From contig MIQB01000003.1 of NCBI GenBank assembly GCA_002890585.1, positions 6,727 to 70,726 of the forward strand: DNA of 64,000 nt, read 5' to 3'. Below, in pieces: positions 1,009 through 62,745 of this stretch. Below the pieces are notes generated by a model, which searched no databases, was not told where the DNA came from, and saw nothing but the letters and a program-made list of their open reading frames with translations. Within the stretch, counting starts at the first letter, position 1, and each line of letters opens with the position of its first letter. The stretch comes from Tannerella sp. oral taxon 808 (GTDB taxonomy: Bacteria > Bacteroidota > Bacteroidia > Bacteroidales > Tannerellaceae). The translations under genes and the position numbers were made by a program.

Positions 1009-1215
1009 ACTGATTTTTGCTGGTGCATGAGTGATTTTTGCTCATGCGCCAGCTTTTTTTGCTCACACGCGAGCTTTTTTTGCTCGAGCGCGAGTGATTT
1101 TTACTCGTCCACGAGCTTTTTTTACTCACACACCAGCTTTTTTTACTCGAGCACGAGCTTTTTTTACTCGCGTGCGAGTGATTTTTACTCGTCTATGAGC
1201 AAAAAAAGCTCGTCC
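1009..1215. repeat. T-rich tandem direct repeat array with units of about 21-24 bp (gagctttttttgctca / gagtgatttttactcg variants)
   Basis: Periodic repeats are visible in the sequence. The array ends with the inverted pair gagcaaaaaaagctc. Confidence 0.8.
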
Positions 1216-1297
1216 GTCGGAGCCCCATTTCGGTTCACCACCCCCGGATTTTACCGCGAGACGTCCCGAACCTCTCCGGAGAGGTTCCAAACCTCTT

Positions 1298-1466
1298 CTG
1301 ACACGTTTCCGACCTCTCGGGATACGTTTCCGACCTCTTCTGATACGTTTTTTACCTCTCGGGACACGTTTCCGACCTCTTCTGACACGCTTTTTACTTC
1401 TCGGGACACATTTCGGACCTCTCCCGATACGTTTTCAACCTCTCCCGATACGTTTTCAACCTCAAA
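1298..1466. repeat. 21-bp tandem repeat, 8 copies (gacacgtttccgacctctcgg / gatacgtttccgacctcttct variants)
   Basis: The 21-nt periodicity is exact. The long ORF 973..1488 is only these repeats read in frame. Confidence 0.85.
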
Positions 1467-1484
1467 CCCCATTTTCCCGCTAAT

Positions 1485-2027
1485 ATGATCGTAGCCGAAC
1501 AGAAAAGACGAGACAACATCGTCGAGTACCTATTATATATGTGGCAGGTGGAAGACCTGATCCGCGCCAACGCGCTTGACAGCGACCGCATCCGCCGCAT
1601 ACTCGTCTCGCGTTACGATGTTCCCGACGCCGAGCGCGAACGCATCGCCCAGTGGTATGACGATTTGGCAGCCATGATGCGCAGCGAAGGCGTCGCCGAA
1701 CACGGCCACCTACAGATCAACCGCAACATCGTCATCGCCCTAACCGACCTTCACCTCGCCCTCCTGAACGACCCCCACGAGACCACCTACAGCGCCCTCT
1801 ACTACAAGGTGCTCCCCTCCATCGTCCGCCTCCGCGCCAAGTCCGGAGGTGCCGAAATGTCAGAGCTCGAAACCTGCCTCACCGCCCTCTACGGCTACCT
1901 CCTCCTCCGCCTCCAGGGATCACCCGTCAGCCCCGAGACCCTCGAATCCATCCGCGACATCCACCTCATGCTGACATTCCTGGCAGAGAAATACAAGGAG
2001 GAACAAGCCCCCCTCCATCCTAATTAA
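1485..2027 (+). CDS. Conserved Bacteroidetes hypothetical protein (DUF4924-like)
   Basis: A 180-aa ORF with good coding potential and no antisense competitor. It resembles a family I recall lying next to rfbD in Bacteroides. The family assignment is from memory. Confidence 0.5.
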   Translation: MIVAEQKRRDNIVEYLLYMWQVEDLIRANALDSDRIRRILVSRYDVPDAERERIAQWYDDLAAMMRSEGVAEHGHLQINRNIVIALTDLHLALLNDPHETTYSALYYKVLPSIVRLRAKSGGAEMSELETCLTALYGYLLLRLQGSPVSPETLESIRDIHLMLTFLAEKYKEEQAPLHPN

Positions 2028-2051
2028 TCATTAATAATTAACCATTACCCC

Positions 2052-60151: not shown

Positions 60152-60643
60152 ATGAAGAAATTGAATCGCAAACTGATCCACGGCACCAACTGGGCGCTGG
60201 CGGGGTTGCTCTCTGTGTTGGGATTCTCTGGCTGTGGATGGGGAACTCAAGTGGAAGAGTATGGCACACCACATGCTGACTTCAAAGTCACGGGGCGCGT
60301 GACGGATGAGCAGGGCCAGCCGCTCTCGGGCGTGCGCGTGGTGACACCAAGTATGACAATGAAATGGCATGATTCCTTCAGTGAGTATCGCCAGACTAAC
60401 CCCCTCCGTGACACCGTGTACACCTCCGAAGATGGCACATTCGTCAGCCGCCCCGGCGGTGTCCCCACGGACTCGGTGTATGTACACATGAAGTTTGAAG
60501 ACCCCTCGGAGCGCCCGGCCTATGAGTCGGACAGCGTCACGGTCGGGTTTGCCCGGGGCGACCTGAAGGGCGGCGATGGGCATTGGTACAGAGGTGCGAC
60601 GGAGAAGAAGATCGAAGTCACGCTGAAGCGGAAGAACAAGTGA
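60152..60643 (+). CDS. Small lipoprotein, copy 1 of a tandem pair associated with the downstream radical-SAM/SPASM enzyme
   Basis: MKKLNRKLIHGTNWALAGLLSVLGFSGC lipobox. It shares core motifs with copy 2: FKVxGRVTDEQGxPxSGVR, PDSVYVxxKFEDP and DSVTVGFAxGDLKG. Confidence 0.6.
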   Translation: MKKLNRKLIHGTNWALAGLLSVLGFSGCGWGTQVEEYGTPHADFKVTGRVTDEQGQPLSGVRVVTPSMTMKWHDSFSEYRQTNPLRDTVYTSEDGTFVSRPGGVPTDSVYVHMKFEDPSERPAYESDSVTVGFARGDLKGGDGHWYRGATEKKIEVTLKRKNK

Positions 60644-60677
60644 TTAACCATAAACGAAAAGAAAGGGACACGAAACG

Positions 60678-61154
60678 ATGAAAAGATTCAAACGCAAACT
60701 GATCCGCGGTACCAACTGGGCGCTGGCGGGGCTGCTGACCATGTTGGGATTCTCCAGCTGTAGTAGGATTGGAGAGATGGAGTACGGTTCACCGAACGCC
60801 AACTTCAAGGTCATGGGCCGCGTGACGGACGAGCAGGGACGGCCGATCTCGGGCGTGCGCATCGTGGCGCCAAACGTGGAGGGGAAATGGGGTAAGCAGC
60901 AATATCCATCCCCACTTGACACGACGTATACCTCCCCAGACGGGAGTTACAGGTACTGGCACAACGCCGGATGGGCGCCGGATTCGGTGTATGTAAAACT
61001 GAAGTTTGAAGACCCCACGAGTAATCCCCTCTACGAGCCGGACAGCGTCACAGTCGGGTTTGCCAAGGGCGACCTGAAAGGTGCTTCTGGGGAATGGTAC
61101 CAAGGCGCGGCGGAGAAGAAGGTCAACATCACGCTGAAGCGGAAGAACAAGTAA
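60678..61154 (+). CDS. Small lipoprotein, copy 2 (paralog of 60152..60643)
   Basis: MKRFKRKLIRGTNWALAGLLTMLGFSSC lipobox. Its stop TAA overlaps the rSAM start (TAATG). Confidence 0.6.
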   Translation: MKRFKRKLIRGTNWALAGLLTMLGFSSCSRIGEMEYGSPNANFKVMGRVTDEQGRPISGVRIVAPNVEGKWGKQQYPSPLDTTYTSPDGSYRYWHNAGWAPDSVYVKLKFEDPTSNPLYEPDSVTVGFAKGDLKGASGEWYQGAAEKKVNITLKRKNK

Positions 61155-62242
61155 TGAACGACGCCAAGATCGACCTCAGGAAGCGGATCGCATTGGAGAC
61201 CTTCCGCCGCATGCACCTCAACCGCGTGAAGCTGCACGAGCTCCGGACGCTCTTCTGGGAGTGCACCCTGCGCTGCAATGTGGCCTGCCGCCATTGCGGA
61301 AGCGACTGCCGCGTCTCGTCGCTACAGCCCGATATGCCCATGCAAGACTTTCTGCGCGTGGTGGACGAGATCACGCCACACGTCAATCCGCACAAGGTGC
61401 TCGTCATCTTCACCGGTGGCGAGGCACTCGTTCGGCCCGACATCGAGGCGTGCGGCCGCGAGCTCTACCGCCGCGAGTACCCCTGGGGCATCGTCTCCAA
61501 CGGGATGCTTTTCGCCGAGCGGCTGCCTGGCCTGCTGGCCTCCGGCATGCGCTCGGCCACGATCAGCCTCGACGGCTTTGAGGATGATCACAACTGGATG
61601 CGCGGCCACCGCAACAGCTTCCGCAACGCCACCGCCTCGATTCGTGCCCTGGCCGAGGTGGATGATGTGAATTGGGACGTCGTCACCTGCGCCAACCGCC
61701 GCAACTTCGACGATCTGCCCCGCTTCAAGCACTATCTGCTCGGGCTTGGCGTCCATCGTTGGCGCATCTTCACCGTCTTCCCCGTCGGCCGCGCCGCCCG
61801 CGTCCCCGAGCTGCAACTCACCGATGCGCAGTTTGTCAGCCTCATGCGCTTCATCCGCGATTCGCGTCGCGAGGGCCTCGAGGTCGCTTACGGCTGTGAG
61901 GGCTTCCTCGGCGGCTACGAGATGGGCGTCCGCGACCACTTCTACGAGTGTTCAGCGGGTGTCACCACGGCCTCCGTCTTGGCCGACGGCTCCATCTCTG
62001 GCTGCCCCAGCATCCGCGCCAACTATTACCAGGGCAACATTTACAGCGACAGCTTCATGGACGTCTGGGAGCACCGCTTCCGCCCCTATCGCGACCGCGA
62101 GTGGATGCGCAGCGGCGAGTGTGCCGATTGCAAGCTCTTCCGCTATTGCGAGGGAAACGGCATGCACCTGCGCGATGGCGACGGCCGCCTGCTCGTCTGC
62201 CACCATCGGCGCATCACGCAGGGGCTGAAGGCGGAAGGCTGA
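61154..62242 (+). CDS. Radical SAM enzyme with a C-terminal SPASM-like auxiliary Fe-S cluster domain
   Basis: CNVACRHC (CxxxCxxC) rSAM motif and a VLVIFTGGEALVRPD glycine-rich SAM motif. C-terminal Cys cluster GCPSIRANYYQGN...ECADCKLFRYCEG. The start was set at 61154, which is translationally coupled to copy 2 of the lipoprotein. Confidence 0.8.
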   Translation: MNDAKIDLRKRIALETFRRMHLNRVKLHELRTLFWECTLRCNVACRHCGSDCRVSSLQPDMPMQDFLRVVDEITPHVNPHKVLVIFTGGEALVRPDIEACGRELYRREYPWGIVSNGMLFAERLPGLLASGMRSATISLDGFEDDHNWMRGHRNSFRNATASIRALAEVDDVNWDVVTCANRRNFDDLPRFKHYLLGLGVHRWRIFTVFPVGRAARVPELQLTDAQFVSLMRFIRDSRREGLEVAYGCEGFLGGYEMGVRDHFYECSAGVTTASVLADGSISGCPSIRANYYQGNIYSDSFMDVWEHRFRPYRDREWMRSGECADCKLFRYCEGNGMHLRDGDGRLLVCHHRRITQGLKAEG

Positions 62243-62299
62243 AGGCGAAAAGCGAGGAATGCGAAGTCCTGCTGGCCGGTTCGTGCGAATCAGCCGGCA

Positions 62300-62745
62300 G
62301 GACTTTCTTTTTGGTGCTTGAGAATCATTTCACACACTGTGAAAAGGGTGTGCAGGCCTTGCATAGTCATTTCACACACTGTGAAAAGGCCGCGCAAGCC
62401 TTGCATGGTCATTTCACACACTGCGACGACGCTGTGCAAGTGTTGCATAGTCACGCCGCACACTGTGAAAAGGCCATGCAAGCCTTGCATGATCATTTCA
62501 CACACTGTGACGACGCTGTGCAAGTGTTGCATAGTCATTTCACACACTGTGAAAAGGCCAGCAAGCCTTGCATGATCATTTCACACACTGCGACGGCGCT
62601 GTGCAAGTGTTGCATAGTCACGCCGCACACTGTGAAAAGGCCAGCAAGCCTTGCATGATCATTTCACACACTGCGACGACGCCATGCAGACCTTGCACAG
62701 TCATTTCATACACTGCGACGGCGCCATGCAGGCGCTTGCCCAAGT
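62300..62745. repeat. Tandem array of about 10 units of 41-42 bp. Two subtypes alternate, giving an 84-bp super-period: A is catttcacacactgtgaaaaggcc.tgcaagccttgcatg.t and B is catttcacacactgcgacgacgctgtgcaagtgttgcatagt. Each carries the atgcaag-cc-ttgcat palindrome.
   Basis: All 10 units were aligned directly. Units 6 and 8 are 41 bp, which breaks any single reading frame. Confidence 0.85.

Follow-up and report, generated by a model that had tools for sequence, protein, structure and literature searches.

Tandem-repeat arrays of fixed unit length and free sequence in an oral Tannerella: a more diverse variant of the BrickBuilt/PgRS kind

The closest described counterparts of the repeats considered here are two elements of Porphyromonas gingivalis. 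BrickBuilt is a 23-nt minisatellite that sits inside a transposable element of the miniature inverted-repeat type (MITE), with a leader and a tail that ends in IS5-like repeats; its 19 copies are always intergenic, vary between strains and are predicted to form stem-loops (Klein et al. 2015, PMC4596501). PgRS/MITE464 carries 41-nt repeats, and 22-nt repeats have also been reported (PMC4596501). Here, we analyse the intergenic tandem-repeat arrays in a 64,000-nt stretch (the window) of Tannerella sp. oral taxon 808 (GCA_002890585.1, contig MIQB01000003.1), and find them to be a new, much more diverse variant of the BrickBuilt/PgRS kind. On the collective evidence it is probable, though by no means certain, that the arrays are non-coding hypervariable minisatellites (variable-number tandem repeats, VNTRs), partly MITE-borne and typical of a high-GC oral Tannerella clade of BU063 relatives, which grow and shrink by slippage or unequal recombination. 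A search of the literature on such repeats in Tannerella, Alistipes or Bacteroides returned nothing beyond BrickBuilt.

The likeness to BrickBuilt lies in the spacer-free tandem arrangement of imperfect 23-nt units, the strictly intergenic and strain-variable occurrence, the stem-loops (as predicted for BrickBuilt), the IS5-type MITE ends and the related oral lineage of the Bacteroidales. Eight families of spacer-free intergenic 23-nt repeats are present in the species, and six period-41 families parallel the internal 41-nt repeats of PgRS/MITE464, which in both cases can be found inside a MITE, since a Tannerella MITE (strain locus L003) carries an array of period 41/42. The differences are equally clear. 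Tannerella has many unrelated unit families, as opposed to the single BrickBuilt family in 19 copies; most of its arrays lack terminal repeats, and a shared leader or tail was not found. Aligned circularly to the BrickBuilt unit consensus AGACCATAGTATCCTCTCATATG (supplementary file 1 of PMC4596501), the units reached at best 8-12 identities in 23 positions, no better than shuffles (P = 0.18 for the highest value, 12 of 23). The BrickBuilt terminal repeats GAGACCTTTGCA and TGCAAAGGTCTC had three 2-mismatch matches, none near arrays, with 4.8 expected by chance, and the PgRS terminal repeat GAGACTGTTGCA had no match in the window at up to 2 mismatches. The Tannerella MITE has an end of MITE239/ISPg3 type (ACGTGAGTTCGA) in place of the PgRS end, the PgRS comparison covering ends and period and not the PgRS unit sequence. 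Neither the units nor the ends of BrickBuilt, nor the ends of PgRS, therefore have a homolog among the sequences compared. Shared period classes together with the missing unit and terminal-repeat matches mean that the arrays are the same kind of element as BrickBuilt/PgRS, not members of those families. The original prediction had noted a BrickBuilt resemblance and a distinct family: the former stands for the kind of element (23- and 41-nt classes, MITE ends) and fails for homology, while the latter is borne out. What BrickBuilt/PgRS represented in a single species is thereby seen in another genus as well, with dozens of repeat families in place of one.

Called with Tandem Repeats Finder (TRF), the tandem repeats of the window form 45 rows that collapse into ~18 arrays (Table 1), in keeping with the at least 17 originally predicted; 20 block-shuffled windows gave 11 rows in sum. 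Written out in register, the units abut head-to-tail with zero spacers, and the unique spacers between repeats that characterise clustered regularly interspaced short palindromic repeats (CRISPR) were absent from the window arrays. Each array has its private unit sequence, except for one family shared between 6839-6991 and 22263-22428 (83% identity over 147 bp). The gene map, constructed from a codon-usage filter on open reading frames (ORFs), Pfam, and tRNA and Rfam scans, portrays an ordinary chromosomal region (pncB, prfC, a cobalamin salvage/uptake cluster, enolase, tgt, lptF/G, lptD, fmt) in which the array bases (3,576 bp, 5.6% of the window) are 100% non-genic and make up 32% of the non-genic DNA. 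The median spacer length is 552 bp where an array is present (n = 12) and 78 bp where none is (n = 31; longest, 386 bp). With array spacers so much longer, and none beyond 386 bp lacking an array, the arrays account for essentially all long spacers.

The density of 2.8 arrays per 10 kb is ~8-fold above the 0.34 per 10 kb in a background of 160 loci (L011-L090, L112-L191; 2.41 Mb) around prfC and enolase homologs of other Bacteroidota, for which arrays with period ≥10 and ≥2.5 copies were counted (n = 82). Relatives at 55-60% GC, namely BU063 (GCA_000510545.1), GCA_015471965.1, GCA_015473145.1 and several metagenome contigs, match the density of the window. Dense in close relatives and sparse in the background, the arrays are therefore typical for the clade and unusual for the order: the predicted excess over the Bacteroidales norm is confirmed, and the accompanying reservation that such arrays could be ordinary for their taxon applies to the BU063-like clade and not to the order as a whole. 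Among contigs representing one genome per species, the closest prfC genes are those of Tannerella and of metagenome-assembled genomes of Tannerellaceae, at no more than 85% identity. For an oral Tannerella clade known mostly from metagenomes, the arrays have practical importance in that they shape operon spacing, break short-read assemblies and create false gene calls.

Short-read contigs frequently begin or terminate within arrays, and all contigs of the same species are metagenome-derived, so that every strain comparison draws on metagenome assemblies. The arrays, or the differences in their copy number, could on this account be artefacts of de Bruijn assemblers. Contig breaks at arrays are, however, expected of true repeats, though they make the strain copy numbers from short-read assemblies provisional. 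Over stretches of 8.9, 2.1 and 9.9 kb, five arrays included, the window is matched at 100% identity by Logan contigs (run SRR4235940), and the same arrays lie contig-internally, between conserved flanks, in other strains (95-98% identity) assembled with other programs. Imperfect units and higher-order structure recur across samples and assemblers (MEGAHIT, SPAdes, Logan). The same classes are found in related NCBI genomes with Mb-sized contigs, and the P. gingivalis equivalents are present in finished genomes (PMC4596501). We consider an assembly artefact, against which the original prediction had cautioned, to be extremely improbable.

The arrays gain and lose whole units in place, arise from or collapse to a single copy, and are exchanged between strains as whole cassettes. 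Relative to the copy numbers of the window (Table 1), array 51808 has ~6 units in L001-L003, array 62324 has 6.9, 8.9 and 8.9 in other strains, array 22263 has 5.2, 3.2 and 6.2, array 22778 has 9.0, 8.0 and 6.6, and array 44352 has 3.3 in L102. The unit CGTACAAGCATCGTGTA.., single in the window, is present in 3, 4 and 6 copies in L092, L094 and L093, respectively, between identical flanks. The strain comparison that had been suggested beforehand thus reveals whole-unit differences at several arrays. As judged from short-read assemblies, the arrays have the defining traits of a minisatellite/VNTR, namely head-to-tail units of 10-100 bp, variable in copy number between strains and set in conserved flanks, and they lend themselves as ready strain-typing markers. 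The unit-wise differences in length, together with the higher-order periods of 42, 63, 69 and 84 bp detected by TRF, point to slippage or unequal recombination.

At three loci one array takes the place of another that is unrelated to it and was assigned to its period class. Downstream of cbiK, a period-23 array within 45-nt inverted repeats in the window corresponds to a period-42 array in L092. At the locus next to spoU encoding a protein of the uncharacterised DUF6261 family, both the window and L092 have period-41 arrays with unrelated units, and the encoded proteins are 30% identical. At the tRNA-Phe/DUF3256 locus, the strain-specific cassette 39176-39869 of the window, in which the unit of the second array recurs in inverted form as the left end (39187-39212), corresponds in L102/L105 to a MITE (~30-bp terminal repeats) with an unrelated period-42 array.

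The connection to MITEs is most evident from a ~427-bp element upstream of the NUDIX gene, present in L001, L002, L003, L006 and L007 but not in the window. In L003 (9431-9857) it has the ends ACGTGAGTTCGA...TCGAACTCACGT, flanked by a 7-bp direct repeat (TATGGTA). It carries an array of period 41 or 42, the units having the palindrome TTGCGGGAnTCCCGCAA in common. The 12-nt end ACGTGAGTTCGA is identical to the end of P. gingivalis MITE239 and close to that of ISPg3, as listed in PMC4596501. The last 20 nt of the element occur once in the window (7176-7195), identical to its right end; a left end to pair with it was not found there. Counted over the window and the sister strains, two unit families are dispersed to two loci each, and one MITE end to two loci. 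Terminal inverted repeats were not found around arrays 1014, 1269, 22263, 22778, 31586, 51808 and 62324, and the idea of such repeats around every array was discarded, their presence being restricted to a minority.

Formation of the arrays as hypervariable minisatellites may be envisaged as follows. A hairpin-capable sequence, often brought in by a MITE or a REP-like (repetitive extragenic palindromic) element, would be duplicated, after which slippage during replication, together with unequal recombination, would multiply it in steps of one to three units and so produce the higher-order periods observed. Arrays would persist because the spacers tolerate them, and their main effect would be to lengthen and vary the spacers, thus shifting the distances among upstream sequences, promoters and terminators.

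A striking feature of the arrays is the narrow choice of unit length. Pooling of the window with its sister strains gave 31 TRF families, and all 24 substantial non-coding ones have one of four periods, 21 (3 families), 23 (8), 41 (6) or 42 bp (7), with unrelated sequences. Longer repeats of 125 and 168 bp are ~3x and ~4x 42, respectively, and periods of 40-43, 82, 123 and 248 bp are found in relatives; the 58-bp repeat at 30354-30476, directly adjoining the start codon of the opposite-strand SpoU methylase gene, falls outside the rule. The low-copy non-coding repeats of the background show, across Bacteroidales, a sharp peak at period 22 (19 arrays, compared with 1 at period 20, 4 at 21, 2 at 23, none at 24-25 and 1 at 26) and minor peaks at 41-42 and 82-83; these 22-, 41-42- and 82-83-bp classes were absent from the background loci of Flavobacteriales and Saprospiraceae. 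Background cases of the peak mostly have ~3 copies, with a significant dyad in 9 of 31, and part of them may be operators spaced by 21 bp, of the type known for hybrid two-component regulators (HTCS).

Several explanations for the rule were considered and rejected. Phased A-tracts or curvature are not enriched (an A/T run of at least 4 in 48% of units and in 38% of control segments, P = 0.22). A core motif is missing, with no 8-mer common to three families and AAAACAC in only 4 of the 24. The 41/42-bp units are not recognisable as diverged ~21-bp dimers, half-unit identity being no better than in shuffles (sum P = 0.37), and strand bias is inconsistent. Two candidate causes are suggested instead: a threshold length for amplification by recombination could select the units, the supply of duplications dropping steeply as they get longer; alternatively, hairpin-protected flaps of preferred length might arise in lagging-strand maturation. 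A rule by which unit length is fixed (21, 23, 41, 42 bp) and sequence is free lies outside current models of repeat formation.

The strongest hint of function, for at least one class of array, is the link to DUF6261 (PF19775). An array of period 40-42 was found upstream of all 10 distinct DUF6261 genes examined across the clade (represented by the window and by loci L092, L102, L192, L193, L196, L197 and L199-L203), at a distance of up to ~160 bp in nine and of 648 bp in L192. In the window, two of the three period-41 arrays (43 spacers) precede the only two DUF6261 genes, the probability by chance being ~0.003. Array units at DUF6261 genes are unrelated except between close orthologs, and one DUF6261 gene is preceded by 1.4, 4.5 or 5.5 units in three samples. 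The protein is modelled by AlphaFold2 (AF2; mean pLDDT, the predicted local distance difference test, 76) as an all-alpha domain and, after it, a disordered basic tail rich in Lys and Pro. Nothing significant was found for it in NCBIfam and PHROGs profiles, nor did the AF2 model have a PDB match at E ≤ 0.001. One of its homologs is assigned by name to Tannerella sp. oral taxon BU063. The arrays provide the first contextual clue for this family. Judged from the sequence context, the 40-42-bp arrays upstream of DUF6261 are likely to have a cis-regulatory role, with copy-number-dependent expression or as a binding platform. The GC content dips to 46% at 44001-46000 (~58% elsewhere), a region that covers the second DUF6261 gene and its array.

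The observations on unit length and on DUF6261 could also be explained if the arrays were dedicated protein-binding platforms (operator, iteron or centromere-like), each unit of ~2 or ~4 helical turns binding a dimer via its palindrome, with protein geometry setting the length. By analogy with ParR/parC or Rep/iteron systems, the cognate protein of the 40-42-bp class could be the DUF6261 protein encoded downstream, in autoregulation. The clustering of periods at ~2 and ~4 turns irrespective of sequence would fit, as would the dyads, significant in ~10 of 16 arrays, the constant array at the DUF6261 genes (9 of 10 within ~160 bp of the start), the all-alpha domain with its basic tail, the joint change of array sequence and DUF6261 allele, and a palindrome kept between species in units otherwise diverged. 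For Bacteroides HTCS regulators, moreover, the predicted binding sites are direct repeats with a spacing of 21 bp (Ravcheev et al. 2013, PMC3878776). However, a large set of specific binders would be required for more than 24 unrelated unit sequences without a motif common to the families; an obvious target gene is lacking for arrays in convergent spacers; the decay of palindromes is not offset by compensatory change; DUF6261 has neither a recognised DNA-binding fold nor a PDB match; and plain linkage also predicts that array and allele vary together. Protein-binding platforms as the general explanation are therefore deemed unlikely.

Dyad symmetry, a prominent part of the original prediction, proved less general than supposed. 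The four palindromes quoted there are present, but instead of nearly every unit it is ~10 of 16 arrays in which the best perfect stem per unit exceeds that of shuffled units, and 6 of 16 show nothing. Several arrays fold far more stably than arrays of permuted units (z down to -7.9). Of the cells with stem variation, compiled over unit variants of the window and the sister strains, 144 are disruptive and only 16 compensatory, with another 53 one-sided or wobble. Stem changes being mostly disruptive, hairpins are without sign of selective maintenance within arrays, and hairpin selection through compensatory change (16 as against 144 cells) finds no support.

These results bear directly on a possible action at the RNA level, in which arrays in 5' or 3' untranslated regions would work as terminators or insulators, REP-like barriers to exonuclease, or precursors of small RNAs. 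Several units, for example in array 1014-1202 and in the DUF6261 arrays of L092, L102 and L196, present a hairpin and then a T-run along the direction of transcription; some arrays come to within 39-65 bp of the DUF6261 start codon, a gap in which a promoter would hardly fit, and may thus lie in the leader; and the BrickBuilt regions of P. gingivalis are transcribed (PMC4596501). The folding stability of the arrays agrees with such a role, while the near absence of compensatory change and the six arrays without significant dyads do not. Rfam matches over the arrays were not found, terminator-like units are confined to some families, and strand or composition bias relative to the flanking genes (rut-like C-rich tracts) was inconsistent across arrays. 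An RNA-level function as the common denominator of the arrays appears quite improbable.

The original prediction placed most arrays close to promoters and entertained a function as promoter modules, neither of which is upheld. Every type of spacer is occupied (Table 1), and five arrays lie in convergent (3'-3') spacers. The Bacteroidetes -7 box TAnnTTTG has 14 non-genic occurrences, most of them located 5-70 bp upstream of where a gene or RNA starts, and only one of the 14 is inside an array, even though arrays constitute about a third of non-genic DNA. Recognisable promoters fall between array and gene, as exemplified by the -7 box at 44669 between array 44352-44608 and DUF6261. Promoter function is ruled out by this depletion: the arrays are not promoters.

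The arrays are also non-coding. Spurious ORFs run across them, as was expected, and have no Pfam matches. For arrays whose period is divisible by three (21, 42), a role in encoding repetitive peptides may nevertheless be asked, with the ATG-initiated, 171-codon ORF at 973-1488 (+) as prime candidate. It starts 5 bp past the pncB stop, overlaps the DUF4924 start by ATGA and so fills the pncB-DUF4924 spacer exactly; it spans both period-21 arrays, some unit differences are synonymous (GAC/GAT, ACC/ACT), and gene callers annotate it. Yet the codon-usage caller passed it over, its translation is implausible (FCWCMSDFCSCASFF...), it has no Pfam match, its exact sequence is absent from the protein collection searched, and it has no homolog at the other loci despite the conserved synteny of the neighbouring DUF4924-rmlD-prfC across the Bacteroidales. 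Despite its striking fit to the spacer, the ORF is probably spurious and was dismissed as a real gene for want of a Pfam family and a homolog. With most arrays having periods of 23 or 41, which cannot encode a repeat, we regard the peptide interpretation as very improbable.

Several observations weigh against the arrays being hypervariable minisatellites and nothing else. A purely mutational, neutral origin does not predict the confinement of 24 out of 24 families to unit lengths of 21, 23, 41 and 42 bp, the constant 40-42-bp array at all ten DUF6261 genes, or the exchange of an array, at its own locus, for an unrelated one with equal period. The arrays of L102 and L196 upstream of related DUF6261 genes keep the palindrome TTTCCCGCCGCGGGAAA in every unit, the rest having diverged, and this conservation between two species hints that some units at least are under constraint. 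Terminal inverted repeats are missing around most window arrays, so that delivery by MITEs is shown for a minority only, and short-read metagenome assemblies may collapse arrays, making copy numbers less sure. A further reading would be a hitherto uncharacterised length-measuring system of Tannerella/Porphyromonas, perhaps of Bacteroidales, where an excess of 22-bp repeats is likewise seen. In it DUF6261 would bind, or be controlled by, its own array, array and protein would co-diverge between strains as a contingency-type module, and the geometry of binding or repair would fix units at ~2 and ~4 turns irrespective of sequence; we put this forward as a rather unlikely scenario.

Comparison with further known systems places the arrays among intergenic repeats more widely. 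Like the mycobacterial interspersed repetitive units (MIRU/VNTR) of Mycobacterium tuberculosis, they are intergenic minisatellites with units of tens of bp, found at sites across the chromosome in strain-variable copy number; the MIRU have units of 40-100 bp from a few related families and are not known to follow a two-class length rule or to have comparable hairpin content. Similarity to REP sequences and bacterial interspersed mosaic elements (BIMEs) consists in palindromic, intergenic, clustered units, often after gene 3' ends, and in the REP-like palindromes of the window (13210-13650, 57490-57602). In enterobacterial BIMEs, unit orientation alternates and mobilisation is by RAYT (REP-associated tyrosine) transposases, whereas the window units are strictly direct repeats; no RAYT was seen in the window, nor any transposase-like Pfam match among its genes. 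Resemblance to contingency-gene tracts, such as the 7-bp repeats upstream of hmw1A/hmw2A in Haemophilus influenzae, lies in a repeat of variable copy number that immediately precedes the promoter serving a fast-diverging gene family, as with DUF6261 (alleles at one locus being 30% identical between strains). Those tracts have units of 1-7 bp, as compared to 40-42 bp in Tannerella, where an effect on expression is hypothetical. In HTCS operators and plasmid iterons, too, direct repeats follow each other at a spacing of about two helical turns (21-23 bp); the known sites are in 2 copies, lie in the promoters of regulated operons and lack palindromes, unlike the Tannerella arrays, which have 4-9 copies, extend to convergent spacers and vary between strains.

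Table 1. Arrays, associated elements, DUF6261 genes and array-bearing spacers in the window (window coordinates)
Feature	Position (strand)	Units or copies	Details
Array, period 21 (higher order 42/63)	1014..1202 (TRF row 1014-1191)	~8-9 units	unit CTCG-N4-CGAG, then T-run; pncB/DUF4924 spacer
Array, period 21 (higher order 42/84)	1269..1463	9.3 units	dyad symmetry weak
Perfect repeat, period 21	3037..3078	2 copies	5' of prfC
Array, period 23	6839..6991	6.7 units	family of 22263-22428, opposite orientation
Array, period 23 (higher order 46/69)	6978..7125	6.4 units	dyad GCTTA..TAAGC
Solitary MITE end CTTACATCGAACTCACGTTA	7176..7195 (+)		contains terminal repeat TCGAACTCACGT; right after arrays 6839-7125
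Compound 168-bp repeat	13210..13700 (TRF row 13210-13538)	≥2 copies	REP-like palindromes GGGGCGTATGCGATACGCCCC; convergent spacer
MITE-like cassette	13912..14316		45-nt inverted repeats 13912-13956 / 14272-14316, 82% complementary
Array, period 23	14019..14126		inside MITE-like cassette 13912..14316
Array, period 23	22263..22428	7.2 units	
Single copy of unit CGTACAAGCATCGTGTA..	22697..22719	1 copy	array in other strains
Array, period 23	22778..22960	8.0 units	dyad CTTCAC-N6-GTGAAG
58-bp repeat	30354..30476	2.1 copies	A-rich 14-bp sub-repeats GAAAAACGAAAAGT; no dyad
DUF6261 (PF19775) gene	30591..31526 (-)		period-41 array directly upstream, gap 59 bp
Array, period 41	31586..31803	5.3 units	59 bp upstream of DUF6261 gene 30591-31526 (-)
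Array, period 42	39321..39540	5.2 units	within cassette 39176..39869
Array, period 42	39725..39870	3.5 units	within cassette 39176..39869
Array, period 41	44352..44608	6.3 units	end 116 bp upstream of DUF6261 gene 44725-45654 (+)
DUF6261 (PF19775) gene, paralog 29% identical	44725..45654 (+)		period-41 array directly upstream, gap 116 bp
Array, period 41	51808..52009	4.9 units	dyad TTATGTTG-A-CAACATAA
Two adjoining arrays, period 23 (higher order 69)	56816..57029		convergent spacer; in segment 56702-58978
Array, period 23 (higher order 69)	57240..57382	~6 units	dyad CCCAA-N5-TTGGG; in segment 56702-58978
Array, period 42 (higher order 83/84)	62324..62715	9.4 units	two dyads per unit; convergent spacer
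Array spacers, co-directional	969-1484, 2925-3183, 6804-7312, 22260-23015, 30352-30590, 31527-32046, 44170-44724		
Array spacers, divergent	38925-39952, 51659-52206		
Array spacers, convergent	13144-14578, 56702-57673, 62243-62815		
REP-like palindrome sites	13200-13650, 57490-57602, 13912-13956, 14272-14316, 14359-14403, 14520-14538, 22461-22494, 22650-22683, 30548-30584		

Additional features were noticed in and around the array-bearing spacers. Two dispersed families of GC-rich REP-like palindromes, GTAGGGGCGTATCGCATACGCCC and CCCAGGGTTTCGCCCTGGGCTATC..GGCC, are found in these spacers, the second forming the inverted ends of small cassettes. A cassette at 22461-22683, not present in L093, has 34-nt inverted ends (94% complementary) and a perfect 31-bp hairpin inside (22525-22591). 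Most strains do not have the segment 56702-58978 with its two or three period-23 arrays, and in them fmt follows NUDIX after 34 bp; the segment is bounded by a 16-nt inverted repeat (56703-56718, 57602-57617) and includes a sodium:alanine symporter gene that an in-frame stop (AVAA*VGTGN) makes a pseudogene. Gene content 3' of the PMT_2 gene is likewise strain-variable (window ~32000-34650; L102 13373-19085; L104 4345-6286), with zinc-ribbon proteins in the window, ENT/DUF4112 and another DUF6261 in L102, and RloB with an AAA_15 ATPase, a defence-type pair, in L104.

Array 51808-52009 is flanked by divergent promoters, of DUF3078 on one side and of the Bacteroidales-1 (6S-like) RNA on the other. 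The RNA gene (52207-52393, +, 128.7 bits) has a -7 box at 52158, 49 bp upstream of its start, and the period-41 array ends ~150 bp further upstream. Finally, two cobalamin riboswitches, 7313-7539 (+) and 18958-19155 (-), each lie 5' of an operon for a TonB-dependent receptor, and the cobalamin salvage cluster around both comprises cbiK, cobU, cobT, cobS and a periplasmic binding protein.

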